Of a stretch of 64,000 bases of DNA, positions 9,560 through 45,289 are shown one piece after another; within the stretch, counting starts at the first letter, position 1, and the number at the start of each line of letters is the position of its first letter. Under the pieces are notes generated by a model. It was not told the origin of the DNA. It did not search any database and was given only the letters and a program-made list of their open reading frames with translations. The DNA comes from Nitrospiria bacterium (GTDB taxonomy: Bacteria; Nitrospirota; Nitrospiria; JACQCE01). The stretch spans positions 41,884 to 105,883 of the forward strand of contig DATIZH010000007.1 in assembly GCA_035517195.1 (NCBI GenBank), written 5' to 3'. The position numbers and the translations under genes are program-made.

Positions 9560-9567
9560 TCAAGCCA

Positions 9568-10077: not shown

Positions 10078-10127
10078 CCTCCGATGGTTCGAAACGGCTT
10101 CGCCAACACCCCACACAGGGTCGCAGG

Positions 10128-11168: not shown

Positions 11169-11172
11169 GGTC

Positions 11173-16664: not shown

Positions 16665-16702
16665 GAATCGACGACATCTGCACCTTGCAGAAGGGAATTT
16701 TT

Positions 16703-19700
16703 GTGGCCGTCGACCGAAGCACCCTCATACAAAACGCCCAGCGCTTCACGGCCAGGGGCCAGATTGACAAGGCGATCGAGGAATGGCAGAAACTTGTCAG
16801 TCAGACCCCCCAGGACGGCAATCTGTACAACACGATCGGCGACCTGTACCTGAAAAAGAACGACAACCATCACGCGGTTGAAACGTTCTTGCTGGCCGCA
16901 GCCGCATTCGAGCGGGCCGGGTTTGCACTCAAGACGATCGCCGTGTACAAGAAAATCCTCAAAGTCGATCCCTCCAATCTTGAAGTCAATCTCAAGCTGG
17001 CCGACCTCAACGCGGATCGCGGACTGACGGGGAACGCCATCGAAGACTACCTGAAGGTCGCCAAGGAGTTTGGTCGGGCGGGCAAGGTTCATCAGGCGCT
17101 GGATATTTACAGGAAGATCGCCAATTTCGATCCCAGCAACATCAATATCCATTTAAAGCTCGCGGAACTGAGTCTTCGGGAGAAACTGACTGACGAGGCG
17201 ATCGACGAATATACAAAAATCGCCAAAATTTACGAGCAAAACGGCCGGTCCGCCGATGCGGCCGGCATGTACAAAAAGATTCTTGACATTAATCCGAAAC
17301 ATGAAGCGGCCAGGGAGGCCCTCAAGTTGTCAGGGCCCAAGGAGGCCCTTAAAGAGCCCGCGCCCAAGGGGACCCTCAAGGAATCGGCGCCCACCGCGGC
17401 GCCGGTGCTGCCGACCATCAAGGAGATCGAGGACGCCATTGCATCAGAAGATTGGGATCTGGCTGGTCAAAAGGCCAGCGCCCTCCTGCTGCATGAGCCG
17501 TCCAATATGACGCTTCGGTGGCTGCGCGGCAAGGTCCTGCTCCACAACGGCCATCGAAAAGCTGCGTGGGACGACTACCGCGCGATCGTCGATGAGGCGA
17601 TGCGCGCCAGACGAGTCGACGAGGCGATTACGCTTGTGCGGGAATATATCGGGCAGGCGCCCGATCAGCGGGAAGCGGTCGAGTGGTTGGCGTCCCAGTA
17701 TGAGGAGAGGAAGCAGGTTCCGGAGGCCGTCCAGACCCTCGCGACGCTGATTGAACTCATGGATCGTGAAGGCGTCCACGAGTCTGAAGTCAAAGAGTGC
17801 TTCCTGAAGATGAAGGCGCTCGATCCGGCGGGTGAAATGACCGGCCGCTATATGGCGAGATTCGAACCGCCGCCCGTTCAGGAGGCGGTGGAGCCTGTGG
17901 TGGCGGGCCCCGTCCAGGTTGAGCCCGGGACCTCAGACCCCAGAGGCACCGAAGTCGACCGACTTGATGATGCCGGGTCAGCCCCCGTTGAAGCAGGGCA
18001 AGCGGCTGGGGAGGCTCCGGTCACAGGGGAGGTGTCGGACGGCAATAAGGATGGGTGGTCCGATGCTCTTGCACATATCCTCCCCGGATCGCTGCCTGCC
18101 GAGCCGGTTCCGGATGAGGGAGAGCTTCCGGCCGTGGAAGACGCGCCCCCGGCACCCGTGGAATCGTCCAAATCAAGCCGTTCGCACTCCGTGTCTCATT
18201 CGGTCAGCCATCGCGCCGCGGCCACGCCGGACAAATTATCCGCGAACGCGCCACCCAGCCGCGAGGCATCACAGAGTCAGAGTCAAGAACGGTCGGCCCC
18301 CTCGATCAGTCACCGTGCCGCAGCCGAGCCGGTGAAACCGGCCGCGCGTCCGCCGCACCGCGCCGAGGCGTCACAGAGCCAGAGTCGGGAGCCGTCGGCC
18401 CCGCCCAAGCAAAAGAAGCGGGTCCGCCCCAGGGATTTACAGGATTATTTTGCCGAGGCCGAAGTGTATTTGAAATACGGTCTGGCCGCCAAGGCGATCG
18501 AACAGTACGATTTGATTCTCTCCATTGACCCCAACAATATCGAGGCCCATTCCAAACTGAGCGAGTTATATCAGTTGGAGGGTAGAACGGAGGAGGCGGT
18601 CACCCACTGCGTGGCACTGGCTCAGGTCTATCTCGCCGGGGGCCAACGCGACGCCGCAGAACAAATCTGGGGGGAAGCACGGGAATTGAGTCCGGACGAT
18701 CCCCGGCTGCAGGGCGGGATCACGGATCATGACGCGCCCGCCACACCTCACGCGACACAGCACGAAGACGACCAGTTGCCCCAGGAAGAGACCATTCAGC
18801 GGCCCAAACACGATCTCCAGGAATGGCTTGCCGAAGCGGAATTTTACCTTCAGCAGGGACTGCAGGAGCAGGCCCACGAATTGTTTGAAACCATCCGGCA
18901 GCATTATCCCGATGCTCCTGAAATTCAGGCCTATTTCAGCGCGCCACATCAATCGGTACAAGGCGGCGCCCGCGCTTCGGCAGCCAAAGGAATGAGTGAG
19001 GTAGCCGATGAACCGGAGCGGTCATCCGGCGACGACCCGCCGAGTGAAAACGACGCATCGCTCAGCAAGCAGCTGGCGGATTTGTTTCCGGGGGCGTTCC
19101 GAGGAATGACGGATGAGATTCCACAGAACGCCGCGGACCGTCTGACGGCTTCGGTCGAGGGTGTGATCAAGGCAGTGGAGCAGGGGGGGCAGCCGTTGCC
19201 CCCGGAGGGTCCGGACCCGCATTACAGTCTTGGACTGGCGTACAAGGAAATGGGCCTCTATTCGGAAGCGCGCAAGGAGTTTGAACAGGCGTTGTCGGTG
19301 CCGACCTGTCGCATTGACGCGGCCCTGATGATTGCCGCATGCCACGGTGCGGAGGGACAGTCGAAGCTGGCCGTCCGTCACCTGCAACAGTTCCTGGATG
19401 CCTTGAATCACGATGATCCCAAGTGGGCGGAGGTGGCCTATGAAACGGCGCGCATGTACGCCGATACCGGTGAACCGGACAAGGCCGTGACCTTGCTTCA
19501 ATCCGTGATCCGCACCAACTCTGCGCACGAACAGGCCGCGAGCCTACTGAAAACGTTGCAAAAGCCCTCACCATCGAACGGCTCTCAAGAGAGGGAGCGG
19601 AGCCAACCGTCGCCTTCAGTGAAGGCGGCGCCCGAGGATCGGGGACATCGTTCAGACGACCCGGCGGACAAGGCAGGGGAGCCAAAGAACGATAAGAACA

Positions 19701-19726
19701 AACGACGCCGGATTTCGTACGTCTAA
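16703..19726 (+). CDS. Large TPR-repeat protein with a central low-complexity Pro/Ser/Ala/His-rich linker
   Basis: Many TPR units (e.g. GNLYNTIGDLYLKKNDNHHAVETFLLAAAAFERAGFALKTIAVYKKILKVDPSN). GTG 16703 is preceded by GAAGGGA. TTG 16685 is the ORF-track alternative. Confidence 0.8.
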   Translation: MAVDRSTLIQNAQRFTARGQIDKAIEEWQKLVSQTPQDGNLYNTIGDLYLKKNDNHHAVETFLLAAAAFERAGFALKTIAVYKKILKVDPSNLEVNLKLADLNADRGLTGNAIEDYLKVAKEFGRAGKVHQALDIYRKIANFDPSNINIHLKLAELSLREKLTDEAIDEYTKIAKIYEQNGRSADAAGMYKKILDINPKHEAAREALKLSGPKEALKEPAPKGTLKESAPTAAPVLPTIKEIEDAIASEDWDLAGQKASALLLHEPSNMTLRWLRGKVLLHNGHRKAAWDDYRAIVDEAMRARRVDEAITLVREYIGQAPDQREAVEWLASQYEERKQVPEAVQTLATLIELMDREGVHESEVKECFLKMKALDPAGEMTGRYMARFEPPPVQEAVEPVVAGPVQVEPGTSDPRGTEVDRLDDAGSAPVEAGQAAGEAPVTGEVSDGNKDGWSDALAHILPGSLPAEPVPDEGELPAVEDAPPAPVESSKSSRSHSVSHSVSHRAAATPDKLSANAPPSREASQSQSQERSAPSISHRAAAEPVKPAARPPHRAEASQSQSREPSAPPKQKKRVRPRDLQDYFAEAEVYLKYGLAAKAIEQYDLILSIDPNNIEAHSKLSELYQLEGRTEEAVTHCVALAQVYLAGGQRDAAEQIWGEARELSPDDPRLQGGITDHDAPATPHATQHEDDQLPQEETIQRPKHDLQEWLAEAEFYLQQGLQEQAHELFETIRQHYPDAPEIQAYFSAPHQSVQGGARASAAKGMSEVADEPERSSGDDPPSENDASLSKQLADLFPGAFRGMTDEIPQNAADRLTASVEGVIKAVEQGGQPLPPEGPDPHYSLGLAYKEMGLYSEARKEFEQALSVPTCRIDAALMIAACHGAEGQSKLAVRHLQQFLDALNHDDPKWAEVAYETARMYADTGEPDKAVTLLQSVIRTNSAHEQAASLLKTLQKPSPSNGSQERERSQPSPSVKAAPEDRGHRSDDPADKAGEPKNDKNKRRRISYV
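18206..18409 (+). repeat. Two imperfect 102-bp (34-codon) tandem repeats inside the TPR gene
   Basis: Unit 1 SHRAAATPDKLSANAPPSREASQSQSQERSAPSI. Unit 2 SHRAAAEPVKPAARPPHRAEASQSQSREPSAPPK. Preceded by SHSVSHSVSH. Confidence 0.8.
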
Positions 19727-19736
19727 TGGAGGGATC

Positions 19737-20564
19737 ATGGACTACTTGGAATTCTATCGTCTGAAGGAACAGCCCTTTTCAATCGCGGTCGATAATCGGT
19801 TTTATTACAACAGCAGCCAGCACAGTGAAGCGCTGATCCGGTTACGATATGCGGCGGACACCCAAAAAGGACTGGCAGTGCTGGTCGGCGACGTCGGGAC
19901 GGGGAAAACGACGCTGGCCCGCCGGCTGCTGGATGAGTTGGATGAACGGTACTTCCACGCCGCATTGCTGGTCGTACTGCACGCCTCGGTGACAGCGGAG
20001 TGGCTGGTCCGCAAAATCGCCATGCAATTGGGCGTCGAGAAACCGGCCGATGATAAAACCGAATTATTATCTCAATTGTACCAGCGTTTGGTCGAGCTCC
20101 ACGATCAAAAGAAGAAGGCGGTGGTGCTCATCGATGAAGCGCAGATGCTGGGCAACAAGGCGCTGATGGAGGAACTCCGAGGCATCCTGAATATCGAAGT
20201 GGATAATCAGAAGCTGTTGACATTCATCCTGTTTGGCCTACAGGAGTTGGATAGCTGCCTCTCACTCGATGGGCCGCTGCGCCAACGGGTGGCGATCCGG
20301 TATGAGCTGACCTCGTTTACGCAGGCCACGACGGAGGATTACATCCGGTACCGGTTGCAGGTCGCCGGGGCGACCCGCGAGTTATTCAATGCCCCCGCCC
20401 TGGCCACGGTGTTCGAGTATTCCCGCGGCGTGCCGCGATTGATCAATACCATCTGTGACAATGCCCTGCTGGAAGGCTTCTTGCGAAAAAAGGAGCAATT
20501 GGAGCCGGATTTGGTCCGAGACGTGGCGTTTGATCTGAAACTGTCCCAGGCGGTCAGCGCTTGA
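19737..20564 (+). CDS. ExeA/GspA/MshM-like AAA+ ATPase (paralog 1)
   Basis: MDYLEFYRLKEQPF..., Walker A GDVGTGKTT, Walker B VVLIDEAQ, GVPRLINTICDNALL. GGAGGG Shine-Dalgarno upstream. Confidence 0.8.
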   Translation: MDYLEFYRLKEQPFSIAVDNRFYYNSSQHSEALIRLRYAADTQKGLAVLVGDVGTGKTTLARRLLDELDERYFHAALLVVLHASVTAEWLVRKIAMQLGVEKPADDKTELLSQLYQRLVELHDQKKKAVVLIDEAQMLGNKALMEELRGILNIEVDNQKLLTFILFGLQELDSCLSLDGPLRQRVAIRYELTSFTQATTEDYIRYRLQVAGATRELFNAPALATVFEYSRGVPRLINTICDNALLEGFLRKKEQLEPDLVRDVAFDLKLSQAVSA

Positions 20565-25440: not shown

Positions 25441-26271
25441 GTGTACATTGATTACTGGGGGTTGACATCACCTCCCTTTGAAAACGTGCCGGATCCCAAG
25501 TTTTATTTCCCTTCAAGCCAGCATGAGGAGGGACTGCACCGGTTGCTGTACGCCGTGACGCAACGCAAGGGCGCCGCCATGCTCACGGGGGAAGTGGGAT
25601 GCGGCAAGACGCTCTTGTCCCGTGAATTTCTAAATAATCTTCATAGCGACCGGTTCAATGTGGCCATGATCACCAATCCATCGTTTCCGGCCCAACAGTT
25701 TTTTCATGAGGTGCTCTACCAGTTCGGGATCGGGACGACCGGCAACCGGAAGGTCTCGATGCTCCATCGCTTTAACGAACATCTGCTGCAGAACGACGAA
25801 CGGAAGATCCAGAGCGTGCTGGTGGTCGACGAGGCGCAGGCCATCGTCGACGACCAGGTGCTGGAAGAGCTTCGACTGCTGTTGAATTTTCAACGGAATG
25901 ACCGGTTTTTGCTGACCCTCGTCCTACTGGGCCAGCCTGAACTTCGCGAGAAGCTGTGGGCCCTCCCGCAATTCGCTCAACGGATTGGCATCCAGTATCA
26001 CCTGATGCCATTGGAAGAAACCGAGGTGGACCGGTACGTCACCTCCAGGCTGCGCGCCGCCGGCAGGGCCGATGAGTTGTTCGACCAGGAGGCCACTCAG
26101 GCGATCGCGAAGTGCAGCAGGGGGATTCCACGAGTGATCAACAACTTGTGCGATCTTTGCTTACTGTCCGGACGCCTGGCGAAGGCCAACCGGATCGATG
26201 CAGATCTTGTCCACATGGTAGCCAGGAACGGGTATTTCGCCGGGTACTTTACCACGGTGGCTCATGGCTGA
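25441..26271 (+). CDS. ExeA/GspA/MshM-like AAA+ ATPase (paralog 2)
   Basis: YWGLTSPPFENVPDPKFYF, Walker A GEVGCGKTL, Walker B VLVVDEAQ, GIPRVINNLCDLCLL. GTG start with GGAGAGG upstream. Confidence 0.8.
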   Translation: MYIDYWGLTSPPFENVPDPKFYFPSSQHEEGLHRLLYAVTQRKGAAMLTGEVGCGKTLLSREFLNNLHSDRFNVAMITNPSFPAQQFFHEVLYQFGIGTTGNRKVSMLHRFNEHLLQNDERKIQSVLVVDEAQAIVDDQVLEELRLLLNFQRNDRFLLTLVLLGQPELREKLWALPQFAQRIGIQYHLMPLEETEVDRYVTSRLRAAGRADELFDQEATQAIAKCSRGIPRVINNLCDLCLLSGRLAKANRIDADLVHMVARNGYFAGYFTTVAHG

Positions 26272-27376
26272 ACCGATCAAAAAAGAGAAACCGATCGTCC
26301 GCTATAGCGACTTGGCCCGATCATCTGAAAACGGGCTGCGAAACATCGGGTCGGACACGCCGGTGCGCGATACGGATGAGATCATGTTCCGGGACGCGAT
26401 CCAGTTGAGAGCCATGGGCCGGTCCCAGTCGCCTCAGCCCGTCGCCTCCAGCGGGGCGGGTGATCATCACGTGGCCAGGCTGTTTGAGCAGATCCTCCAT
26501 GAGGTGACAGGGATTTATACAGCCGCGCGGGGCGGTCTGCCGTTCCGTCTCGAACGGGTGTTTGGTCTGGCACAAGCCATCGCCGATCATGCGACGCCCG
26601 ATCGGTTGCTGTCCCAGCTGTTTGAAGCGCACCCGCAATTCCACTACACCGATCTGAATTCGGCGCACTGCGCAATTATTGCGGTTCAGATCGCCCGCGG
26701 ATTGGGCCATCAACGCGATGAACAGGTCCAGTTAGCCGTCGCGTCCTTGGTTCACGATATCGGCATGCAGACGCTGCCGCAGGGATTGCTCAATACGCCT
26801 GGTCCATTGTCCAAAGACCAGGTTGCCGCCGTACGGACCCATCCTGAATCGGGGGCTCGGTTGTTGAAACAAGCCGCCCCGCAGCACCCCTGGCTGGCCG
26901 CCATCGTCAGAGAGGAACACGAACGGGAGCAAGGGCAAGGTTATCCCAATGGGCTCCGGTCGGAAGAAATTCATGCACTGGCCAAGATTCTTGGCCTGGC
27001 GGATATTTACGACGCCTTGATCTGCCCGCGTCCATATCGACGCATGTTCAGCCCGCATGAGGCGGTCCAGGAGTTGCTGGATTGTCAGGACCGCCTGGGG
27101 TATCCGAAACTGGTCGTCCGGGAACTCATCCAGCAGCTGTCGCTCTTTCCGGCCGGGTGTCGCGTCAGGCTCAGTTCGAATGAGGTCGGGCGCGTGATCC
27201 TCATGAATAAGCAGTCTCCCCTTAGGCCGGTAGTGGAGGTGTTGTTCGATGCGGAAGGACAGCCGCTGCAGACCCCCAGGCACGTGGATCTGAACACGAA
27301 TCCGCTGGTCTATGTCACGGCATCGCTGCCGTTAGAGCATGCCTGCGTGACGGCGCCATCGGAGAACGGCAATTGA
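26264..27376 (+). CDS. HD-GYP domain protein (putative c-di-GMP phosphodiesterase) with an uncharacterised N-terminal region
   Basis: LVHDIGM, THPESGARLL, EEHEREQGQGYPNGL, ADIYDALICPRPYR. 8-nt overlap with ExeA paralog 2. Confidence 0.75.
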   Translation: MAEPIKKEKPIVRYSDLARSSENGLRNIGSDTPVRDTDEIMFRDAIQLRAMGRSQSPQPVASSGAGDHHVARLFEQILHEVTGIYTAARGGLPFRLERVFGLAQAIADHATPDRLLSQLFEAHPQFHYTDLNSAHCAIIAVQIARGLGHQRDEQVQLAVASLVHDIGMQTLPQGLLNTPGPLSKDQVAAVRTHPESGARLLKQAAPQHPWLAAIVREEHEREQGQGYPNGLRSEEIHALAKILGLADIYDALICPRPYRRMFSPHEAVQELLDCQDRLGYPKLVVRELIQQLSLFPAGCRVRLSSNEVGRVILMNKQSPLRPVVEVLFDAEGQPLQTPRHVDLNTNPLVYVTASLPLEHACVTAPSENGN

Positions 27377-27399: not shown

Positions 27400-28566
27400 T
27401 CATCTCGTCCTGTCTCCACCTGCGCCGGAATGTATGAGCCGCCCCGTCAATTGGACGGCCCGCCATGACAGGCGGCCCAACCGGTCGAGATAACTCCAAG
27501 TGATGCCGAGCGGCGAGACGGAACGACCCTCCTGCCGGAGAGCGTCTCTCTTCGGGAAGATGACCTGCCGAACAAAACGTCGCCGCAATGCAGCAGGCCG
27601 AACGGACATCAGATAGAACAGATCCCCCATGCCATTGATGCGGTGATCGGCCATTAATCGGGCGTATAGCCGGCGCTCCAGCCAGGTCAAAGACGGTGCG
27701 GGCAGTTGGACAGTAAGCAAGGAGGGGAGTAGCAAGACTGTTCTGAGATAGGCGCAGACGAAATAGAGCGGTCGGTCGAGTCCGAGCTGCTCGGCCCTCT
27801 CCCTGATTACATCAAACGCTGTCACCTTGAGGAGTCGGTTCAGCAGCCGTCCGATATCGATAAACCAGATCAGACGGTCGAACGAATGCTTCTGAAGATG
27901 GGCGCTGAGGATCACGATCTGGTCGATCGGCGCCAACGACCAGCTCACGGCCGAGCCAAACGGTCGTCGAACGGCGCCGGTCCAGAGCATCGTCTCGTCG
28001 ATGCGGAGAGGATTGGCCGCCGGTTCGACGCGGGAGAGCGAGGCCAGCTGCCGGTGCAGATCGATGCAGATCCCGTCTCTCACATACACGGGGGGAAAGC
28101 GGGACACGGCCGTGTAACCCAGGTCGAATAACAGCCGTTCTGTCTGCTTAAAATGATCGGGACGAACCAGCAGATCGATGTCGCTTAACGGGCGGATTCC
28201 GGGTGGATACAGCTCATCAGTAATGGCCATGCCCTGCATGATCAGGAGATCAAGTTTCTTTTCGGCGGAATGGAGCAGCACCTCTTCCAACATCGCGCAT
28301 TTGATGTGATGATCAAGCAGCCGATGTGTTTTGATCCTGTCCATCCGCCGTCGTATGTCCGCCGGCGGAGGGGGGAAAGGGGGGCTCTCTCTGCACACCT
28401 CGTCATGGAGTAGGCCATCTATGCCCTCCCCACCGGCTTCGATGAGCAGAACCGACCATTCTGAAGGGGTCGAGGGCACCCAGCGTTGGGCCTGCGGCAC
28501 TATCGCATCGCACGCGATACGAGCCAACGTGACCTTCTGCCGTTGGACAGCTGTCTGCATAGGCAT
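27400..28566 (-). CDS. Uncharacterised nucleotidyltransferase family protein (PF14907/NTP_transf_5-like)
   Basis: LDLLIMQGMAITDELYPPGIRPLSDIDLLVRPDHFKQTERLLFDLGY is the family hallmark as I recall it. Start placed at MPMQTAV; ORF-track start 28689 would overlap the divergent gene. Confidence 0.65.
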   Translation of the reverse strand: MPMQTAVQRQKVTLARIACDAIVPQAQRWVPSTPSEWSVLLIEAGGEGIDGLLHDEVCRESPPFPPPPADIRRRMDRIKTHRLLDHHIKCAMLEEVLLHSAEKKLDLLIMQGMAITDELYPPGIRPLSDIDLLVRPDHFKQTERLLFDLGYTAVSRFPPVYVRDGICIDLHRQLASLSRVEPAANPLRIDETMLWTGAVRRPFGSAVSWSLAPIDQIVILSAHLQKHSFDRLIWFIDIGRLLNRLLKVTAFDVIRERAEQLGLDRPLYFVCAYLRTVLLLPSLLTVQLPAPSLTWLERRLYARLMADHRINGMGDLFYLMSVRPAALRRRFVRQVIFPKRDALRQEGRSVSPLGITWSYLDRLGRLSWRAVQLTGRLIHSGAGGDRTR

Positions 28567-28626
28567 GGAGATGTGTTCTAGGATACTCGGCCTCCGGGTG
28601 GATGTCCAGTCGGTGAAACGAGTGTC

Positions 28627-28655
28627 TTGACAACCGGGGGCATGAGGGCTAATAG
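28627..28655 (+). promoter_or_regulatory. Putative promoter of the peptidase/PqqD operon, possibly leaderless
   Basis: TTGACA (28627-28632), 17-nt spacer, TAATAG (28650-28655). ATG 28663 sits about where the transcription start is expected. The ORF-track TTG start is the -35 box itself. Confidence 0.4.
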
Positions 28656-28662
28656 TGAAACC

Positions 28663-29112
28663 ATGGCGCGACCCCATCCCCTGTTTCATGTCGATTTCAC
28701 TCGTGAAGTGCTGACCCGTGAAGGCGAACTCTGGTTTCGAATTGAAGGGCGCAGCATGCGGCCGTTCTTGAGAACTGGCGACCGAGTGTTAATTCGCTCG
28801 TGTTCGATTGATTCGCTGACCTGCGGAGACCTGGTGCTCCTGAATGTCGGTGACTCTCTCTGTCTGCATCGGGTCCTGATGAACGCGGATCGTGACGGTC
28901 CACGCCGACTGAGATCGAAAGGGGATGCCTGCGGCCGATGGGATCTTCCGGTAACTGGCGAGTCGATCGTTGGCAAAGGAGTCGCCGTGAATCGCGGGAC
29001 ACTGACGATGTCCCTGGACAACTGGGCCGGTCGTCTCCTGGGATATCTGTCCGTGTGCGTCTCACTCGTGACAGGATGGGGGTTGTGGTTGAAATGGCGC
29101 CTTCAGGCGTGA
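28663..29112 (+). CDS. S26-family signal-peptidase-like serine peptidase (SipW/ER type)
   Basis: GRSMRPFLRTGDRVLI (Ser nucleophile box), LHRVL (His box) and RSKGDACGRWD (compare TKGDANxxxD), then IVGKGV. C-terminal hydrophobic segment LLGYLSVCVSLVTGWGLWL. No N-terminal TM. ATG 28642 is an alternative start. Confidence 0.65.
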   Translation: MARPHPLFHVDFTREVLTREGELWFRIEGRSMRPFLRTGDRVLIRSCSIDSLTCGDLVLLNVGDSLCLHRVLMNADRDGPRRLRSKGDACGRWDLPVTGESIVGKGVAVNRGTLTMSLDNWAGRLLGYLSVCVSLVTGWGLWLKWRLQA

Positions 29113-29123
29113 CCAGAGTTCCC

Positions 29124-29375
29124 ATGAAGGCGTCCCACACCGCCTCGCAGATGATCAACGGTGAGGCGGTCGTGCTTGATATTCCTGGTAAAATACTTCG
29201 AGGTCTTAATCCCGTGGGCAGCCGCATTTGGGAATTGGTCGACGGCCAACGTACGCTTCTGGACATTGCGCGATTGGTGGCTGAGGAATATACCAGATCT
29301 GAAATCGAAGTGCTTCAGGATGTCGAGTCATTTCTTGATGAGCTTGCCGTACGAGGTGTCATCGAATTCAGATAG
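29124..29375 (+). CDS. PqqD-family protein (RiPP recognition element-like)
   Basis: INGEAVVLDIPGKILRGLNPVGSRIWELVDGQRTLLDIARLVAEEY...VLQDVESFLDELAVRGVI is a typical PqqD pattern. GTG 29109 (GTGA overlap with the peptidase stop) is an alternative start. Confidence 0.75.
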   Translation: MKASHTASQMINGEAVVLDIPGKILRGLNPVGSRIWELVDGQRTLLDIARLVAEEYTRSEIEVLQDVESFLDELAVRGVIEFR

Positions 29376-29442
29376 GATTAAGGATCGAGAAATGGTTTGT
29401 CTTATTAATGGGTTATGCCGTCACTTCAGGTGATATGTCAGG

Positions 29443-29470
29443 TTGACAGACGGAGGAGGTACGCTATAGT
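29443..29470 (+). promoter_or_regulatory. Strong sigma70-type promoter upstream of the riboswitch-like leader
   Basis: TTGACA (29443-29448), 16-nt spacer, TATAGT (29465-29470). Confidence 0.5.
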
Positions 29471-29513
29471 TATAACAGGACAGTGAGAAGCAACGACGGA
29501 CACCGTTAACGCC

Positions 29514-29600
29514 GACACCGATAAGAGCAAACCCCGAGTGATCGGGGGGCGCAAAGCCGCTCACCCCGCCGATGGAGGGCAGGGCAGGAGGGTTGCCGAA
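29514..29600 (+). promoter_or_regulatory. Candidate c-di-GMP-I (GEMM-I) riboswitch aptamer
   Basis: 29525-29558 reads GAGCAAA-CCCCGA-GUGA-UCGGGG-GGCGCAAAGCC. It is segment-for-segment colinear with the remembered Vc2 core GGGCAAA-CCAUUC-GAAA-GAGUGG-GACGCAAAGCC, including a GNRA tetraloop. A second C-rich/G-rich hairpin (29557-29592) follows. It lies between a promoter and a large secreted-protein gene. Confidence 0.55.
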
Positions 29601-29642
29601 GTGAACGGAAGGTACAGGAAAGCTCATTTTCACTTGCCGAAA

Positions 29643-32600
29643 ATGGGCTTATTATTTGCGTGCAGAACGCTGCATCACCGCGCGCTCACTGGCATTTTCA
29701 CTTTAATATTCTGCTGGGTGGCATTTCCCGCGCACGAGGCGAAGGCCGCGGTCGCCTACAGGGCCTCCGGGACGTTCACCGCCAGAACAGGCTCGATCTC
29801 ACCGCCTTATCCCGCGAGCATGCAGGCCAATGATGTCTGCCTGCTTGTTGTCGAGTCAGAGAATCAGGCCATCTCGCTCTCCTCGGCGCAGGGATTTGCC
29901 GAACTCCCCTGGTCGCCCCAGAGCGCTGGGACATCCGGCGTGAACCCGGCGACTCGACTGGCAGTATTCTGGAAACGGACGGTCGGCGGCGACACGGCCC
30001 CGTCCGTCGCCGACACCGGCGACCATACGACGGGCCAGATCCACTGTTTCTCCGGCGTGATCACCTCCGGCAATCCATGGGACGTCGGCACGGGCGGGAA
30101 CGACGGCGGCGCCAATGACACAAGTGGTTCGATCCCAGGCGCCACCACGACGGTCGATTCAACACTGGTCGTCCTAGTGATCTCCACGAGTTATAACGGG
30201 AGCAGTAACACCCAATGCTCGAACTGGACCAACGCGAGCCTGACCAATTTAACGGAGAGAGCGGACAATACTTCCACAGTAGGATTTGGTGGCGGCCATT
30301 GCATGGCCACGGGCGACATGACCACTGCGGGCACCTACGCCACGACCACCGTAACGCTGGCGAATACGACCTACAAAGGGGCGATTTCGCTTGCGCTTAA
30401 ACCATCTGCCCCCCCGGTGGCCAATCCGACCGAGATTCATTACAGATGGCGGGATGACGACGGTCCCGAAGCCGGCGTCCTGAACCTCGCCCTGATCTGC
30501 GCCACGGCGACCTGCACCGATGTCAATATTGATGTCCCCTTGAAGAATCATCTTATTGCCCTGGGGCACACCGTGACCACCTATATCGACACCAATCATA
30601 CATGGACACCCACCAATTACGACGTGATCGTCATCTCTGAGTCGGTGTTGTCGGCCAACACCGCATGGTTGAAACCCTACGCGGTCCCCATCTTGACGGT
30701 CGAGGGGCAAAATTGGGATGAACTCAGTATGGGGACGAGCGGCGACAGTAACCTCGGCGGCAGCCTAGACATCGATATCGTCAATAATACTCACTTCATC
30801 ACCTCCGTCTATCCGCTCGGAACGTTGACCATCAACACCGCCGGCACGAACACCAGCAATGATCTGGGCTATATGGCCGGCTGGGCCAATGGCGTGACGG
30901 ACTTGGCGACTTACACCTCCAACAGCAGTTGGGCCAGACTGCTGGTGGTGGACAAAGGTGGCGCCCTGGTGACAAGCGGAACTGCGGCTGAACGCCGTGT
31001 GTTCTTCGGCGCCCGTTATTTCGGCGAACTGACCAGCGATGGCATCAGGATTTTCGACCGGGCTCTGGCTTGGGTCTCCTATCTTGGCGCCGGCGCCACA
31101 TTCCTGGCCAACGAGGATACGCCGGTGACCGGTTATCCCAAACTCACGACCATTCGAAACAGAATCGAAATCGCCAATCAGGGCGGAACCACCACCGGCG
31201 CCATGACCTACCGGCTGGAATATGCTCTGTCGACGTCCGGTCCGTGGACTTCCGTGCCCGCCGCCGCCACATCAGAAGACTGGGAAATGGTCGACTCCAC
31301 ATTCATCACCGACGGGCAGTCGACACAAAACATTATCCCTGGATTGACCGATGTTGGATCGCCGTTCGTTTCGGGCCAGTTGAAGGATACAGGGTCGACA
31401 ACCGGTGCGATTGCGCTGGGAGGCAGTCAGTTTACGGAGCTCGAATATTCCATCCATGCCACCAGCAACGCGACGAATTGCCAGACCTATTATTTCCGCG
31501 TGACCAACGCCGGTTCAACAACCAATTTCACCTACACCGTCTACCCTCAGATCACGCTGGCCGGTTCACCGACCTGCACCGCACCCACGCCGGTCGACAA
31601 TCTGACGATCACGGCCAACAACTCTCAGAACACGATCACATGGGACAATCCCGCCTCGAATTACACGCAAGTTCTTGTGCTGGCGAAGACCTCGGACTGC
31701 GCCTTCAGCAGCGATCCCGTCGGCACCGAGCCGATCAACACGACGGTCGGGACCGGGACGGTGATATTCAATGACAATCCGGCGGTCGACCTGTCTTCAA
31801 CATCGGTGACGGTGGGAGGACCGACCACGGTCAGCTACACGGCGGCCACCCAGCGATTGGTTCATAGCGGCCTGACCGATGGTGTGGTGTACTGCTACAA
31901 AATCTACATGAGAAACGGCGATTTGATCGATGACGATAGCGGCGCCGGCCGTCCTTCGGTCACCGCCACGGGCACCGACGGGGTTTCGCCCAGTGCGGTG
32001 TGGAGCTTCAATCAGATCGCCTCGACCGGGGCTACACTCGTCCAACCTAGCGTCGATCCCGGGGCGTCGATCTACACATCATATGGCAACGGCACGTTGG
32101 TCGCCATGGATGCGACGGACGGCTTGCTCTCTTGGCGCGTCACACCGGCGTCAGGCGCGATCCAGGATCAATCCGCGGTTGTGCCGATGTCGGGTTCTAG
32201 CACCTGCGGGGTCGCCGGGGCCACCACCTGTCTGTTCGCCGCCGCCCAGGACGGTTTCGTGTATGCGCGAAACGTAACGGACGGGGGCGGGACGTGGAAT
32301 TATCAAAACGGGTCGAGTGATATGCTCCAGGGCGCGCCGGCTGTGCAGGTTAAAGCCTACAGCAACGGCGGGTTTACCTCGACGACCGATCTCGTCTTTG
32401 CGGCCACACGGGACGCCACGACCATGGCCAACAAAGTGTTTGCCCTGAATCCGACCGTCTCCCCGCCGACAGTGGTATGGCTCTACACGGGCGGCAGCGT
32501 CAACCCATCGTTGGACATGATCACCTCTGCGCCGGTCGTCGACTACAGCAACAACCGACTCTATGTGACAAGTAACTCGAACGGAGGCACCCAGCGAAGC

Positions 32601-33227
32601 CTGTGGGTGTTTAACACCCTCAATGGAACATTACTCAGCACCGGATCGACCTACGGAGGAACGACCCTCGGGGATATCCAGGTGCCGCCCGCCTTGAGCA
32701 TTGACGGAAGCGTGGTTTATGTCGGAACGACGGCCGGAAACATCAGAGCCTACAACACCAGTACCGGTGCGCTGCTCTGGAGCTTCCCGGCCGGCAGCGC
32801 GGTTGTGTCTGGGCTGTGGGTCGAGTTCCGTTCGGGCCTGTCGGGGAATATCTTTTTCGCCACGGCCAACGGGAAGATCTGGAGGATAAAAGATAACGGA
32901 TCCTCCGCCACCGATTTGTGGGGGGCCGGCGCCCCGATGATCACCGCCGCATCATTCCCAGTTGTGATTCCTTCCTCCGGAAAGGTCTACGCTGCAGGCT
33001 GCTCGGGCGCGAGTTGTTCCAGCGGCAGTCTAGCCAAGCTCTACCAACTCGCCGTGTCGACCGGGACGAAAGAGCAGTGCCGCATTCTGGGGACCGACGT
33101 CACGCCGGGAGATCCGGCGTTCGATACCGTGCTTGAACAATTGATTGTTGGGGCCACCGATGGCAAATTGCACGCTTACGCCGCGCCTGGCGGCATCCTG
33201 GGGGGAGATCCGTCATGCACGCCATGA
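29643..33227 (+). CDS. 1,194-aa secreted multidomain protein with a C-terminal PQQ-like/BamB-like beta-propeller
   Basis: Signal peptide MGLLFACRTLHHRALTGIFTLIFCWVAFPAHEAKA. About 8 propeller-blade motifs (LVAMDATDGLLSWRV, FVYARNVTDGGGTWNY, IRAYNTSTGALLWSF, IWRIKDNGSSATDLW, and others). Start moved from ORF-track 29538, which lies inside the riboswitch-like element. TTG 29634 is an alternative start. Confidence 0.7.
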   Translation: MGLLFACRTLHHRALTGIFTLIFCWVAFPAHEAKAAVAYRASGTFTARTGSISPPYPASMQANDVCLLVVESENQAISLSSAQGFAELPWSPQSAGTSGVNPATRLAVFWKRTVGGDTAPSVADTGDHTTGQIHCFSGVITSGNPWDVGTGGNDGGANDTSGSIPGATTTVDSTLVVLVISTSYNGSSNTQCSNWTNASLTNLTERADNTSTVGFGGGHCMATGDMTTAGTYATTTVTLANTTYKGAISLALKPSAPPVANPTEIHYRWRDDDGPEAGVLNLALICATATCTDVNIDVPLKNHLIALGHTVTTYIDTNHTWTPTNYDVIVISESVLSANTAWLKPYAVPILTVEGQNWDELSMGTSGDSNLGGSLDIDIVNNTHFITSVYPLGTLTINTAGTNTSNDLGYMAGWANGVTDLATYTSNSSWARLLVVDKGGALVTSGTAAERRVFFGARYFGELTSDGIRIFDRALAWVSYLGAGATFLANEDTPVTGYPKLTTIRNRIEIANQGGTTTGAMTYRLEYALSTSGPWTSVPAAATSEDWEMVDSTFITDGQSTQNIIPGLTDVGSPFVSGQLKDTGSTTGAIALGGSQFTELEYSIHATSNATNCQTYYFRVTNAGSTTNFTYTVYPQITLAGSPTCTAPTPVDNLTITANNSQNTITWDNPASNYTQVLVLAKTSDCAFSSDPVGTEPINTTVGTGTVIFNDNPAVDLSSTSVTVGGPTTVSYTAATQRLVHSGLTDGVVYCYKIYMRNGDLIDDDSGAGRPSVTATGTDGVSPSAVWSFNQIASTGATLVQPSVDPGASIYTSYGNGTLVAMDATDGLLSWRVTPASGAIQDQSAVVPMSGSSTCGVAGATTCLFAAAQDGFVYARNVTDGGGTWNYQNGSSDMLQGAPAVQVKAYSNGGFTSTTDLVFAATRDATTMANKVFALNPTVSPPTVVWLYTGGSVNPSLDMITSAPVVDYSNNRLYVTSNSNGGTQRSLWVFNTLNGTLLSTGSTYGGTTLGDIQVPPALSIDGSVVYVGTTAGNIRAYNTSTGALLWSFPAGSAVVSGLWVEFRSGLSGNIFFATANGKIWRIKDNGSSATDLWGAGAPMITAASFPVVIPSSGKVYAAGCSGASCSSGSLAKLYQLAVSTGTKEQCRILGTDVTPGDPAFDTVLEQLIVGATDGKLHAYAAPGGILGGDPSCTP

Positions 33228-33826
33228 GATCCGGGGCGATCCCCACTGCTGTTGTGCTGCTTGTCCTGTTCGTTTGCGGGGGAATGGAGCTTGCTATTTC
33301 TGGCCCCGCCAGGGCGGGAAATCTCATACTGACGAACAGCATTGGAAGGAATCATGGAAGGGACCACCACACACCGGTTAAGGCGTTGCTCACCGTTGCC
33401 GGCACCGATCTATCGGCCCACACACGGGGCTCCGGCATCATATGGGAAACCTTGAAAGTCGGCACGAGCTTCTCTGCCTCCACTGTCAGGGATCTGTATC
33501 TGTACATCTATTGGACCAATCTCTCCGGGAACCACATTGTGACAGTGACCTTTTACAGCCCTGACGGACAGCTCTATGAGCAACGGCTCATTCCTGTCAC
33601 AACCAGTGCTCAGTCGGTGTCACCGAGGATGGTTCCCGGGGTGGAACGATCCGTGAATGTCCAATCAACTCGGAACTTTGCACAGTACAACGTGTCGACT
33701 GTTCAGCTGCCGGTCGCCGGCACCTGGATCACCAGACATCGTCTTCTGGGCACATGGCGTGCGGATGTCCTCCTGGATCAGGCCTCGACGCCCATCGTCA
33801 GCAGCACCTTTACCATTATGAACTGA
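33224..33826 (+). CDS. 200-aa secreted protein of unknown function
   Basis: Signal-like MRSGAIPTAVVLLVLFVCGGMELAISGPARA. ATGA overlap with the stop of the propeller gene implies translational coupling. No motif recognised. Confidence 0.55.
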   Translation: MRSGAIPTAVVLLVLFVCGGMELAISGPARAGNLILTNSIGRNHGRDHHTPVKALLTVAGTDLSAHTRGSGIIWETLKVGTSFSASTVRDLYLYIYWTNLSGNHIVTVTFYSPDGQLYEQRLIPVTTSAQSVSPRMVPGVERSVNVQSTRNFAQYNVSTVQLPVAGTWITRHRLLGTWRADVLLDQASTPIVSSTFTIMN

Positions 33827-33857
33827 CCATGATGTGCCAGACCCTGCGGGCGCGCGG

Positions 33858-33886
33858 TTGCGGGATCCGGCGGGGTGGGGTATAGT
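33858..33886 (+). promoter_or_regulatory. Possible internal promoter in front of the small ORF/kinase/rSAM genes
   Basis: TTGCGG (33858-33863), 17-nt spacer, TATAGT (33881-33886). The -10 hexamer is the same as at 29465. Confidence 0.3.
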
Positions 33887-33921
33887 GGTAAAAACCGCCA
33901 TGTTCGAGGAGGATGACGAGG

Positions 33922-34086
33922 ATGGATGAACAATCGAACGTCGAACGTCGATCGCTCCCCCCTGAACCCTATCGAAAACCGAAGATCGAATGGGAGGAAC
34001 CATTTGAACCCGTGACGTCGGCCATCAGCTGCGCCAAGCATCCCGGCCAGGGTGTTCCCAGTTGCACAGCGGCGCCGAAAGTCTAA
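33922..34086 (+). CDS. Unannotated 54-aa ORF, candidate RiPP precursor peptide
   Basis: Hand translation: MDEQSNVERRSLPPEPYRKPKIEWEEPFEPVTSAISCAKHPGQGVPSCTAAPKV. GAGGAGG (33906-33912) lies 9 nt before the ATG. The stop is 7 nt before the kinase ATG. Below the 60-aa cut-off of the ORF track. Confidence 0.5.
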   Translation: MDEQSNVERRSLPPEPYRKPKIEWEEPFEPVTSAISCAKHPGQGVPSCTAAPKV

Positions 34087-34093
34087 GATCGAG

Positions 34094-34897
34094 ATGACCG
34101 CTTCTTCAGTGACGCTTGAAATGGGAGGATTCACGTGCGCCATCCTCTCGGGGGATCAGGCGATCACCGAACCACTTACCCGTCGATATCAGGGGTTTTT
34201 TTCGACCGACCCTCCCGACTTCACGCTTACAACCATGATCATGGATGGCGCTGCCCGGCAAGATGGGGTGTTGGAGATTCAATCAGGGGCGGTCGCCGTC
34301 GGGCGATCCGCGCGGCGATTGACGCTGACCGGGAGTGGTTTCTGGGCCGAATGTGATCTGGACCTCAGGACGGGGACCATCGTTCAACCATTGAATTTAA
34401 GTCCTTTAGATGTACTACTCAAGGCGATCTATTCACACTACTTGTCATATGAAGACGCCTGCTTTGTCCATGGCTGTGCCATACAGCGCCAGGGCAGAGG
34501 CTTCCTGTTCTTTGGCCCCAGCGGCAGCGGCAAATCGACAATGGCCAAGATAGCAGGCGAAGGAGTGCTGGCGGACGAATTGGTGATTCTGCGCCGGCGT
34601 GAACGCAGTTATGAGCTTCATGGGACGCCGTTTTGGGGCGGCAGCAATTCGACGGCGCCCCTGACGGGGCTGTTCGCGCTCAGTCTTGACCGTCGCGCGG
34701 AGACCGACACCCTCTTGACGCCGGCCCAGACGGTGCGTCGACTGCTCCCCTGCATGGGTAATTTTATCGAAGATGCGGCGTGCCAGGCGCGGCTGCTGGC
34801 TCTTGCCAGCTCAGTAGCGCAAACCATGCCGTGCCGGCAAGTGCAATTCTCGACCACCGCATCGATGGAGTCCTGGGCCCATGCTCATTTCGTTTGA
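34094..34897 (+). CDS. HPr kinase-related P-loop protein (HprK-like serine kinase)
   Basis: VHGCAIQRQGRGFLFFGPSGSGKSTMAKIAGEGVLADELVIL parallels the HprK C-terminal domain (P-loop plus LVADD-like). Start moved from GTG 34052 to ATG 34094. Confidence 0.65.
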   Translation: MTASSVTLEMGGFTCAILSGDQAITEPLTRRYQGFFSTDPPDFTLTTMIMDGAARQDGVLEIQSGAVAVGRSARRLTLTGSGFWAECDLDLRTGTIVQPLNLSPLDVLLKAIYSHYLSYEDACFVHGCAIQRQGRGFLFFGPSGSGKSTMAKIAGEGVLADELVILRRRERSYELHGTPFWGGSNSTAPLTGLFALSLDRRAETDTLLTPAQTVRRLLPCMGNFIEDAACQARLLALASSVAQTMPCRQVQFSTTASMESWAHAHFV

Positions 34898-36059
34898 TTC
34901 AGACCACCATCGATTGGAGCCATCGAATACTGCCACACGTTATGGGCGAATCGTCAGGCAGGCGGCCAGTGCGCATATTCCGATGAATGTGCTGGTGGAA
35001 CTCACGCACCGCTGCCATCTCGATTGCGTTCACTGTTATCTCGAAGACAATCATGCGCATGACGCAAGGCCTCGAGAGCTCACCACCGAAGAGCTCTATC
35101 ACCTGATTGATGATCTGGTGGCCGCCGGCTGTCTGTTTCTGACCCTCAGCGGCGGGGAGATTTTTCTTCGATCGGATACGTTGAAAATCGCGCGGTATGC
35201 CAGGAGCCGCGGGATGGCGATCCGGTTCTTCACCGCCGGATTGCTTCTGACCACCGAGTTGATCGACGCCATCGCAGAGCTCCATCCGCTCTCTGTTGAA
35301 TTCTCTCTGTATTCGGCCGACCATCCGGACATTCATGACGCCATCACACGCGTGCCTGGTTCTCACGCCAAAACCCTGTGGTCATTGCGGGAGCTGTCCG
35401 CGCGTCGGATTCCGGTGGTGATCAAGACCCCATTGATGCGATCGGTGTATAAGGAATACCCTGGCATTATTGCGCTGGCCCGATCTCTCGGCGCGGAGTA
35501 TCTGCTTGATCCGACCGTAACCCCAAGAAACGATGGTGATCTCTCCACCTGTGCGTTGCGTGTCACAGCGGACCAGCTGGCCGAACTGTATGCCGATCAG
35601 TCTCTGCCCGTGGCCGAGGAGATCAGAACCCTGGCATCCCGCCGCCGACCCAGGGACCCGGATGATGAGATATGCAATCTTGGCAAGACGGGTTGCGCCA
35701 TTTCCCCGTTTGGTGATGTCTATCCGACGTTGGGTTTTCCCTGGTCGGCCGGCAATATCAGACTCGAATCGTTTCAGACAATCTGGCGGGACTCGCCCGT
35801 CTTGGCGAGACTCCGCAACATGAAAGTCAAGGATTTGGGGGTCTGTTCACACTGCGAGAAGGCATCATACTGCAACCGATGCTGCATGTGGGCGCTGATG
35901 GATGACGGCAATTTGCTTGGTGGATCCACCTGGGCCTGCGACATCGCGGCCGCCAAGGAACGGGCGGCTGGGCTTTCATCGAATCCGACCCCCCACCAGT
36001 TAAATATGAGTCAAAGAACGAACGACGATGTTGTTGTTCCACTTCGCCTGATGTTGTAA
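34881..36059 (+). CDS. Radical SAM enzyme with C-terminal SPASM domain
   Basis: CHLDCVHC (CxxxCxxC) and GGEIFL. SPASM-type Cys cluster CNLGKTGCAISPFGDVYP...CSHCEKASYCNRCCMW. 17-nt overlap with the kinase gene. Confidence 0.85.
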   Translation: MLISFDSDHHRLEPSNTATRYGRIVRQAASAHIPMNVLVELTHRCHLDCVHCYLEDNHAHDARPRELTTEELYHLIDDLVAAGCLFLTLSGGEIFLRSDTLKIARYARSRGMAIRFFTAGLLLTTELIDAIAELHPLSVEFSLYSADHPDIHDAITRVPGSHAKTLWSLRELSARRIPVVIKTPLMRSVYKEYPGIIALARSLGAEYLLDPTVTPRNDGDLSTCALRVTADQLAELYADQSLPVAEEIRTLASRRRPRDPDDEICNLGKTGCAISPFGDVYPTLGFPWSAGNIRLESFQTIWRDSPVLARLRNMKVKDLGVCSHCEKASYCNRCCMWALMDDGNLLGGSTWACDIAAAKERAAGLSSNPTPHQLNMSQRTNDDVVVPLRLML

Positions 36060-44273: not shown

Positions 44274-45289
44274 AGATCCTAGTCATCGGATATCACAATC
44301 CTCACTTCGAGACCGTGACCGAATACACGGAGGCGGCTGTCAGGCAAATGGGAGGCCGGTTACTCATCTCTGACGACCGTGACTTTCGACTGCCCGGAAC
44401 CCTGCGGGAATGGTTTGGACCGCTCCAGCGTTGGGATATCAGGAAGATGAACCAGCGTATCGTGGCGCTGGCCATGGACCAGAGTCCACATGTCTGCCTG
44501 GTTCAGGGCGGCCATCGCATCCTGCCTGAAACCGTTCGGGAGATGAAGGCCAGAGGAATCATCACTGTGTTGTGGACGATTGACGCGCCTGGATCGTCTG
44601 GCCTGCCGTATGACACCGCCCCGTTGTATGACCTGGTGTTTTGCGGGGGGACCGAGGCGGTCGAATTACTGACCGCGGCCGGCGTCACACGGCCGCAGTG
44701 GCTGCCTTTCGGCACTCCCTCCGCACTGGAGCCGTATCATTTGAGCGATGGAGAGCGGTCAGCCTACGACAGTGACGTCTGTTTTATCGGATCCTATTAT
44801 CCCAACCGGGCGCGACTGTTCGAGCAGTTGACCGGTCTCCGCCTGCTCATCCGTGGTCCGGGTTGGGGGCGTCTGTCCCCTCAATCACCGCTGACTGCAA
44901 TGGCCAGGGATCGGCAGGTCCCACCGTCAGAATGGCGGCGAATTTATGCCGCGTCGAAGATCGTCCTGGCGGTGCACTATCAGGACGATCGATCTCCATG
45001 CCATCAGGCTAGTCCGAGAGTATTTGAGGTCATGGCCTGCGGGGCCTTCCTGCTCTGCGATGGCCAGCGAGACGTGGCGACGCTTTTTAGGGACGGCGAA
45101 CATCTCGTTCTTTTCAACGACGGCCGTGATCTGAGACAAAAAATCGACTATTACCTGTCCCATCCGGGGGAACGGGCACGCATTGCCGAGCAGGGGCGTC
45201 GAGAAACCTTGAAGCATCATACCTACCTGCACAGGATGGAACACGTGCTGGCCGCCGTGCGGGCCATCCAGGCCCGGAGAGCCGCATGA
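44270..45289 (+). CDS. CgeB-like glycosyltransferase (Glyco_trans_1_2/DUF3880-like)
   Basis: SPRVFEVMACGAFLLCD...DGEHLVLFNDGRDLRQKIDYYLSHPGERARIAEQGRRETLKHHTYLHR. ATGA overlap with the GT2 stop, so start moved from 44258. Confidence 0.6.
   Translation: MKILVIGYHNPHFETVTEYTEAAVRQMGGRLLISDDRDFRLPGTLREWFGPLQRWDIRKMNQRIVALAMDQSPHVCLVQGGHRILPETVREMKARGIITVLWTIDAPGSSGLPYDTAPLYDLVFCGGTEAVELLTAAGVTRPQWLPFGTPSALEPYHLSDGERSAYDSDVCFIGSYYPNRARLFEQLTGLRLLIRGPGWGRLSPQSPLTAMARDRQVPPSEWRRIYAASKIVLAVHYQDDRSPCHQASPRVFEVMACGAFLLCDGQRDVATLFRDGEHLVLFNDGRDLRQKIDYYLSHPGERARIAEQGRRETLKHHTYLHRMEHVLAAVRAIQARRAA

Follow-up and report, generated by a model that had tools for sequence, protein, structure and literature searches.

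A conserved eight-gene cassette for a putative RiPP-like peptide with two secreted partner proteins, located beside an exopolysaccharide locus of a Nitrospiria bacterium

In a 64,000-nt stretch of DNA from a Nitrospiria bacterium (contig DATIZH010000007.1; the whole stretch is referred to below as the window), the interval 27400-36059 was found to hold eight genes that form a self-contained cassette, widespread and tightly conserved. We consider, with a probability of about 0.8, that the window carries one copy of a cassette that tailors a small ribosomal peptide, in the manner of a pathway for peptides made on the ribosome and modified after translation (RiPPs). The eight genes encode a PF14907 (NTP_transf_5) nucleotidyltransferase-fold enzyme, an S24/S26-type serine peptidase, a PqqD-family protein, a large secreted protein with a beta-propeller, an immunoglobulin (Ig)-like beta-sandwich protein, the precursor peptide, an ScmC-family P-loop kinase-like protein and a radical S-adenosylmethionine (rSAM)/SPASM enzyme. 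An initial annotation of this DNA had proposed a RiPP-like pathway outside the described classes, and this proposal is supported here. Every gene that it named was recovered at its position in the open reading frame (ORF) listing and the Pfam and NCBIfam scans, but two conserved genes for secreted proteins, which span 29538-33826 and make up about half of the interval, had been overlooked.

The putative precursor is encoded by 54 codons at 33922-34086 on the plus strand, with a GGAGG sequence 9 nt 5' of the ATG, and is a peptide of 54 aa with the sequence MDEQSNVERRSLPPEPYRKPKIEWEEPFEPVTSAISCAKHPGQGVPSCTAAPKV. Over a 28-codon block, the window gene and its counterpart in another locus (L004) differed synonymously in 12 codons and non-synonymously in 2, and this excess of synonymous changes indicates that the small ORF, previously noted as an ORF of 54 codons, is a genuine conserved coding gene under purifying selection. 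A profile search against 1.84 billion representatives retrieved 995 clusters (50% identity) at E<=1e-3, and no Pfam or NCBIfam model matched the peptides even at E<=10, which leaves a large peptide family of ~995 representative clusters without a model. Among 35 diverse members, Y17, P20, E29, T32, A34, C37 and K39 were invariant, and G42 and C48 were almost invariant. The conserved residues of the core are therefore two cysteines (C37 and C48) and one lysine, without an acidic acceptor for ring formation; the window core, AISCAKHPGQGVPSCTAAPKV, contains neither Asp nor Glu, and an Asp or Glu anywhere in the core was found in only 30 of 232 family peptides.

The leader carries the pattern YxxPxI followed by a Thr at position -2, and the core is predicted to start at Ala34 or Ile35. 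In lasso peptide precursors, the leader motif YxxPxL occupies positions -17 to -12 and a Thr stands at -2 (PMC10368454). With the core starting at Ala34, residues Y17, P20, I22 and T32 match exactly the lasso register Y(-17)xxP(-14)xI(-12)...T(-2), a motif that the initial annotation did not mention. The spacing from Y to T was 15 residues in 21 peptides of the window's own clade and 13 in 211 others.

The recognition of this leader is attributed to the 83-aa PqqD-family protein (29124-29375, plus strand), whose earlier assignment holds with a PF05402 match of E 2.2e-15 and 57 bits, and whose sub-threshold NCBIfam matches comprised PqqD, lasso PqqD, ScmD and GeoRSP PqqD. From its family membership, this protein is probably a leader-binding RiPP recognition element, and it would bind the YxxPxI leader much as the B1 proteins of lasso pathways do. 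The relation of recognition element and substrate is supported by natural fusions of the two: P0239 carries PF05402 at 20-86 and a precursor-like tail at 103-146, and a 135-aa gene product of locus L016 has a PqqD domain apparently fused to a precursor-like tail (…PPAVVWREELNRFGGSCGLLPSQSPLCDQIPFNS). Four proteins, P0239, P0209, P0255 and P0269, are 105-148 aa long and have the precursor motif at their C-terminus.

The association of these genes was assayed in two sets of loci. The first comprised 12 independent loci tabulated with jackhmmer, and the second comprised 80 metagenome loci kept from 308 relatives of the peptide that a scan detected in JGI metagenomes, mostly of soil judging by the contig names; in the second set, each component was counted only in loci with enough flanking DNA. 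The peptide, PqqD, ScmC-like and rSAM genes were present in 12/12 loci of the first set, the S26-like peptidase gene in 11/12, the propeller and 203-aa Ig-like homologs in 11/12, and PF14907 in 8/12, with PF14907 homologs located inside the cassette in L004, L007, L008, L009, L012 and L014. In the metagenome loci, the counts were 36/36 for the rSAM gene, 59/60 for PqqD, 45/46 for the ScmC-like gene, 19/19 for the peptidase, 12/12 for PF14907, 8/8 for the Ig-like gene and 4/5 for the propeller gene. Supportively, homologs of the P-loop protein numbered 33 in an index of 5.8 billion proteins, and the same neighbours were found on every long contig encoding one, while 164 word-index homologs of the small peptide led to further loci of 39-69% GC. 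The initial annotation had regarded a lack of conserved co-localisation as grounds for giving up its proposal; the genes were instead found together at near 100% in about 90 loci, and a chance juxtaposition is therefore ruled out. In a scan of GTDB genomes, the P-loop pattern of the ScmC-like alignment picked up a short HPr kinase of canonical type from Paracoccus and a weak match in Ruminococcus.

Several loci show variants of the gene set. A minimal cassette was found in L003/L015 (9434-12390), where the peptidase, ScmC, PqqD and rSAM genes accompany a peptide of 58 aa that has a longer core and contains four cysteines; the propeller, Ig-like and PF14907 genes are all absent there, and the locus lies among housekeeping genes of an organism of 39% GC. 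In L001 (213-9735), the propeller/Ig-like pair is duplicated in tandem, giving two consecutive pairs 5' of the peptide gene. The cassette of L008 is adjoined by a second, small module (8604-11201), made up of genes for a TPR protein, a further PqqD and a Polbeta/HepT pair together with a second radical SAM gene, in which no SPASM domain was called.

The cassette lies directly 5' of a wza-like gene (36112) and a wzc-like gene (36999), as the initial annotation had reported, and a link to exopolysaccharide (EPS) or biofilm matrix had been drawn from this position. On this reading, the cassette would be a dedicated EPS or biofilm-matrix accessory, for example of the SipW/TasA type, in which the secreted proteins are processed by the peptidase, with the peptide regulating the polymer or being joined to it. 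The genomic context offers some support, since the cassette sits between a PEP-CTERM-type ATPase gene plus an HD-domain gene and wza-wzc in the window, L004 and L007, and in L001 and L006 it adjoins genes for an ABC-2 exporter, glycosyltransferase and AsnB. The proteins themselves supply further hints: the Ig-like protein is weakly similar to the carbohydrate-binding domain of Wzt, the partner proteins of L012 and L018 carry CBM96, and PF14907 enzymes attach sugars to phospho-Ser (PMC8498205). However, none of the six metagenome loci that extend 5 kb to either side had a Wza or Wzc homolog, no glycan genes flank the cassette in L003, L009, L012, L014, L016 and L018, and the neighbours outside Nitrospirota-type loci are unrelated metabolic or housekeeping genes. 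In addition, an N-terminal anchor, by which the active site of the peptidase would come to lie outside the membrane, is missing, and the enzyme is also present in L003, which lacks a secreted partner. A dedicated EPS role is accordingly judged distinctly unlikely. Because glycan neighbours are limited to Nitrospirota-type loci, the EPS context is a location specific to that clade, a local and not a general feature, and a general EPS/biofilm link is not supported. As a lesson for annotation, adjacency to EPS genes is not to be taken as function.

The rSAM/SPASM enzyme (34881-36059, plus strand) retained its earlier assignment, scoring above cut-off for PF04055, at 68.1 bits, and for PF13186, at 32.2 bits. 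It contains a CX3CX2C motif (CHLDCVHC), the SPASM motif CSHCEKASYCNRCC and eight C-terminal cysteines, the SPASM set of cysteines being complete. Its best NCBIfam matches were MftC (130 bits) and PqqE (84.5 bits), all below cut-off, and the nearest solved structures were SkfB, the closest by sequence, and PqqE, both of which are peptide maturases. Its gene is adjacent to the peptide in all 36 loci counted; the enzyme would cross-link the core, most likely through a thioether from C37 and/or C48.

The preceding gene (34094-34897, plus strand), which overlaps the rSAM gene by 17 nt (34881..34897) as previously reported, encodes the ScmC-family P-loop kinase-like protein of PEPCK/HprK fold, assigned by NCBIfam, PF27840 and a structure model. 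It had been described as HPr-kinase-like. That description is valid at the superfamily level, but the best NCBIfam match was ScmC (26.4 bits), and HprK_rel_A (TIGR04352) reached only 18.5 bits (E 8.6e-4) against a cut-off of 200, over the P-loop region 136-182 only. The precomputed Pfam annotation of an identical protein (P0001) is PF27840, ScmC. In its homologs, GPSGSGKST, LADELVI and HGTPFWG are invariant, and the Walker A and DE motifs are intact. The AlphaFold model (predicted local distance difference test, pLDDT, 90) matched ATP-dependent PEPCK over both domains in Foldseek (E 4e-8, TM 0.5-0.6) and, in the catalytic domain, HPr kinase/phosphorylase (E 7e-5 to 1e-3), and a PDB sequence search with the ScmC profile gave P-loop and PEPCK matches only. 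The protein is thus likely to be an ATP-dependent kinase, as far as the model indicates, and it would phosphorylate a hydroxyl group of the peptide.

The PF14907 enzyme is encoded on the minus strand (27400-28689), divergent from the plus-strand remainder of the cassette as had been noted, and its Pfam match is strong (E 6.7e-32, 111.5 bits, cut-off 31.2). Translation probably starts near 28566 (Met42/44), since its homologs are ~383 aa long; it has a DxD motif ('SDIDLLV') and no match in a PDB sequence search. In the paeninodin and pseudomycoidin clusters, HprK homologs phosphorylate the C-terminal Ser of the precursor, and the phosphate then receives hexoses from a PF14907-type enzyme (PMC8498205). 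By analogy, the PF14907 enzyme of the cassette may decorate the phosphate as PsmN does in pseudomycoidin, and the likeliest target of the kinase across the family would be the C-terminal Ser, which is present in 206/232 family peptides (89%). The window peptide, however, ends in Val, which the initial annotation had not remarked on, and its clade ('WEEPFEP', 24 sequences, P0034-P0057) has a C-terminal Ser in 0/24 peptides although its kinase and PF14907 genes are intact. A different phosphorylation site in this clade is therefore suggested. The best candidate is Ser36, which is invariant in the clade and directly precedes the first Cys ('[IVL]SC'), but this choice is a guess.

The S26B (Sec11/SipW)-like serine peptidase (28627-29112, plus strand) matched PF00717 with 29.2 bits (cut-off 23.3). 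Its best NCBIfam match was the archaeal-type signal peptidase TIGR02228, with 33 bits below the cut-off of 51.85. GxSMxP, GD, HR and KGD were invariant in nine homologs, a pattern like the Ser-His(-Asp) site spacing of Sec11/SipW-type S26B enzymes; SM.P, HR and KGD are common to the cassette enzyme and the SipW/Sec11-type signal peptidases. The aligned homologs have no hydrophobic N-terminal segment, and their C-terminal tail is hydrophobic or amphipathic. The earlier label of a SipW-type peptidase is thus borne out by the Pfam match and the motifs, but not by the missing N-terminal anchor and the low TIGR02228 score. The lack of this anchor indicates that the enzyme is not a classical signal peptidase, and we read the sequence as that of a cytoplasmic or membrane-peripheral protein whose likely substrate, unlike that of the SipW/Sec11-type enzymes, is a leader without a hydrophobic core. 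A function as signal peptidase for the secreted partners was rejected, as the enzyme lacks an N-terminal anchor and is present in loci that lack those proteins. It is more plausibly a leader peptidase, and an argument for this role comes from L016, in which the S26-like peptidase is missing and a Transglut_core3 gene of the lasso B2 family stands in its place; the 135-aa fusion gene and this replacement mark the variant cassette at 10522-10929 and 12854-13318. The cytoplasmic peptidase would cut off the leader at the invariant T-x-A, a cleavage compatible with either the lasso rule of Thr at -2 or a -3/-1 small-residue rule.

The two genes overlooked earlier encode putative secreted partners and overlap by 13 nt. 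The first (29538-33227, plus strand) specifies a secreted protein of 1229 aa that has a signal-like segment at the N-terminus, N-terminal domains that vary between homologs and, at the C-terminus, a PQQ-like/BamB-like beta-propeller (PF13360, PF13570). The jackhmmer alignments placed the module common to its homologs at residues ~600-1217, ending in the propeller, and its PDB matches were BamB and quinoprotein. Homologs elsewhere carry other domains, namely CBM96 in L012 and L018 and Peptidase_S8 in L016. The second gene (33215-33826, plus strand) encodes the Ig-like beta-sandwich protein of 203 aa, probably secreted or membrane-anchored, whose AlphaFold model (pLDDT 80.7) consists of an N-terminal helix and an Ig-like beta-sandwich. 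No Pfam or NCBIfam match was obtained for it, and its Foldseek matches were weak and generic (Wzt carbohydrate-binding domain, CARDB, RhoGDI/UNC119). The subtilisin domain of the L016 partner may be mentioned beside a likeness of the core that is pure speculation on our part: the loop Cys-x-Lys-x-Pro-Gly…Cys (C37-C48, 34030-34065) loosely recalls the canonical protease-inhibitor loops (Cys-Thr-Lys) of Bowman-Birk/SFTI type.

The near-obligatory partnership with two secreted proteins is uncommon among RiPP clusters, and may mean that the peptide gives rise to a ligand or cofactor and not to an antibiotic. In the proposed pathway, the finished product would act jointly with the two proteins. A further step would be to regard the peptide as the precursor of a cross-linked small subunit, a prosthetic group or a tight ligand of the propeller/Ig-like pair. 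Such an arrangement has precedents, as PqqA, PqqD and PqqE supply beta-propeller quinoproteins, and the small subunit of quinohemoprotein amine dehydrogenase, which joins a beta-propeller subunit, is cross-linked by an rSAM/SPASM enzyme. Several features of the cassette are consistent with it: the propeller and Ig-like genes recur in 11/12 loci of the first set and in nearly all metagenome loci with enough flanking DNA, no dedicated transporter or immunity gene belongs to the conserved set, the rSAM enzyme scores best in NCBIfam against MftC and PqqE, which are cofactor maturases, it is the propeller module of the large protein that is conserved while its N-terminal domains vary, and the leader Y-x-K-P-x-I resembles the W-x-K-P-x-F of PqqA. 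On the other hand, the minimal cassette of L003/L015 encodes the peptidase, ScmC, PqqD, rSAM enzyme and peptide without a propeller or Ig-like gene, the core has no aromatic residue for quinone formation, propellers of the PQQ_2 type are mostly not quinoproteins (BamB, for example), and no route is visible from a peptide modified in the cytoplasm to a partner exported by Sec. We regard a subunit or ligand of this kind as unlikely.

The RiPP-like tailoring cassette that we favour also has evidence against it. The product and each reaction are deduced from family membership, and may differ from those proposed. In the window clade, none of the 24 peptides has the C-terminal Ser, and two of the 24 lack T32; in P0053 and P0054 of this clade, Ala stands in place of Thr32. 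A transporter is not part of the conserved set, so the export of the peptide is left unexplained, and the classical RiPP scheme assigns no role to the near-obligatory propeller and Ig-like proteins. The NCBIfam equivalog scores all fall well short of cut-off, which means that function cannot be transferred from a named system. Lastly, the model of the ScmC-type protein is closer to PEPCK than to HprK, and on this model its reaction could instead be the phosphorylation of a non-protein acceptor or the activation of a carboxylate.

The scores for the individual systems were as follows. HPr-rel-A, to which the initial annotation had linked the kinase and PqqD genes, is not supported: besides the low TIGR04352 score given above, the system-specific PqqD model (PqqD_rel_X) was absent from the five NCBIfam matches of the 83-aa protein at E<=0.01, and ScmC is the nearer relative of the kinase-like protein. 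For SynChlorMet (TIGR04248-04251), ScmC scored 26.4 bits against a cut-off of 125 and ScmD 29.7 against 100, and the single rSAM enzyme scored 75.2 for ScmE and 74 for ScmF against 400 each. For GeoRSP (TIGR04302/04303), the values were 29.6 against 100 for PqqD and 83.5 against 400 bits for the rSAM enzyme, and for mycofactocin and PQQ they were 130 against 265 bits (MftC) and 84.5 against 381 bits (PqqE). Membership of HPr-rel-A, SynChlorMet (SCM), GeoRSP, mycofactocin or PQQ was rejected on these scores. PADLOC gave no defence-system membership, only a generic similarity of the rSAM enzyme to viperin and of the P-loop protein to JetC.

The lasso pathway required separate evaluation. The earlier statement that the cassette has no lasso cyclase and the window no B2 transglutaminase-like protease holds on both counts. 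No cyclase homolog was found in the cassette, and across 98 loci the only candidates were the AsnB orthologs of the glycan loci L001 and L006, which are full-length; the AsnB of the window (52772-54691) has full GATase domains and is 17 kb away. The B2-type peptidase is absent from the window, and a Transglut_core3 gene was found only in the variant locus L016. A lasso peptide was rejected for want of a cyclase and of an acidic acceptor at core positions 7-9, and the window peptide, which ends in Val, also lacks the C-terminal Ser of a paeninodin-type acceptor. That the cassette is simply a member of a named system, be it a phosphorylated lasso cluster, HPr-rel-A or SynChlorMet, could be argued from the lasso-type leader register, the pair of kinase and PF14907 genes as in paeninodin/pseudomycoidin clusters, and the PF27840 ScmC annotation. 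It is made highly improbable by the missing cyclase, the window core without Asp or Glu, the NCBIfam equivalog scores far below cut-off and the one rSAM gene where the SCM cassette has two.

The resemblance to these systems is nevertheless instructive. With the phosphorylated and phosphoglycosylated lasso clusters (paeninodin, pseudomycoidin, Bradymonas bsf), the cassette shares the leader YxxPx(L/I) at -17..-12 with Thr at -2, a discrete PqqD-like protein and the pair of HprK/PEPCK-fold kinase and PF14907; in 89% of the family peptides the last residue is Ser, which is the one phosphorylated there, and the L016 variant even uses a lasso B2-type protease. It differs in having an rSAM/SPASM enzyme and not a cyclase, no acidic acceptor and hence no macrolactam, a leader peptidase that is S26B-like and not transglutaminase-like, two obligatory secreted neighbours and, in the window, a peptide without the C-terminal Ser. 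With SynChlorMet, it shares the trio of ScmC-type P-loop protein, PqqD homolog and rSAM/SPASM enzyme, ScmC being the best NCBIfam match of the window protein, but it adds the S26B-like peptidase, PF14907, propeller and Ig-like genes, and it has one rSAM enzyme and not two. To our knowledge, no precursor has been identified for the SCM cassette, whereas a clear precursor family was identified here. The sactipeptide and ranthipeptide pathways (SkfB, AlbA and SCIFF maturases) likewise combine rSAM/SPASM, a PqqD-like element and a Cys-containing core. In the cassette, however, the recognition element is separate and not fused to the maturase, a kinase, PF14907 and S26B-like peptidase are added, only two Cys are conserved and a dedicated exporter is missing. 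PQQ, mycofactocin and quinohemoprotein amine dehydrogenase have in common with it a small precursor, PqqD, rSAM/SPASM and an association with beta-propellers, but the cassette encodes no PqqB/C or MftB/D/E homologs and the core contains no Glu-Tyr or Val-Tyr.

The literature searched contained nothing on SynChlorMet/ScmC, HPr-rel-A or GeoRSP, nor on RiPP, SPASM and HPr kinase together, and no description of the precursor peptide family was found in it; the papers that it listed on RiPPs of Nitrospirota did not appear to deal with this cluster. So far as we know, the trio of ScmC, PqqD and rSAM is named only in database family definitions, and the peptide described here offers it a candidate substrate. 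Known enzyme types in an undescribed combination make this a probable new RiPP class, though not a categorically new one. More specifically, and only tentatively, the cassette may represent an uncharacterised class in which the leader logic of lasso peptides is retained, rSAM cross-linking and phospho-decoration replace cyclisation, and the product works with the secreted propeller/Ig-like pair. If so, the product could be, for example, a peptide-derived ligand, a prosthetic group or a tag that a glycan or protein of the cell surface carries through a phosphoglycosyl link. The reuse of a lasso leader, recognition protein, kinase and nucleotidyltransferase with an rSAM enzyme and a signal-peptidase-like protease would point to a modular design, from which RiPP engineering and the rules of genome mining could profit.

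Regarding the surroundings in the window, a strong sigma-70-like promoter match (TTGACA-16-TATAGT, 11/12) was noted at 29443-29470, between the PqqD gene and the gene of the large secreted protein, which suggests that the plus-strand set may form more than one transcription unit. The 5' flank of the cassette holds bioA and the genes of a PEP-CTERM-type ATPase homolog and of an HD-domain protein, and the ATPase-HD pair is syntenic 5' of the cassette in L004 and L007 too. The segments 16685-20564 and 25441-27376 encode a 1013-aa TPR protein with PrsT-like similarity, TIGR03015-like genes and an HD_5-domain protein; the two TIGR03015-like 'PEP-CTERM system ATPase' genes are paralogous and both score below cut-off, and no exosortase gene was identified in the window. 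On the 3' side, the wzc-like gene is followed by Wzy-like, flippase-like, glycosyltransferase, methyltransferase and AsnB-like genes. At 45286-47589, two GT4 glycosyltransferase units are fused to form a protein of 767 aa, and the first of them resembles the PEP-CTERM/XrtA-associated TIGR03088 (323 bits, below the cut-off of 409).

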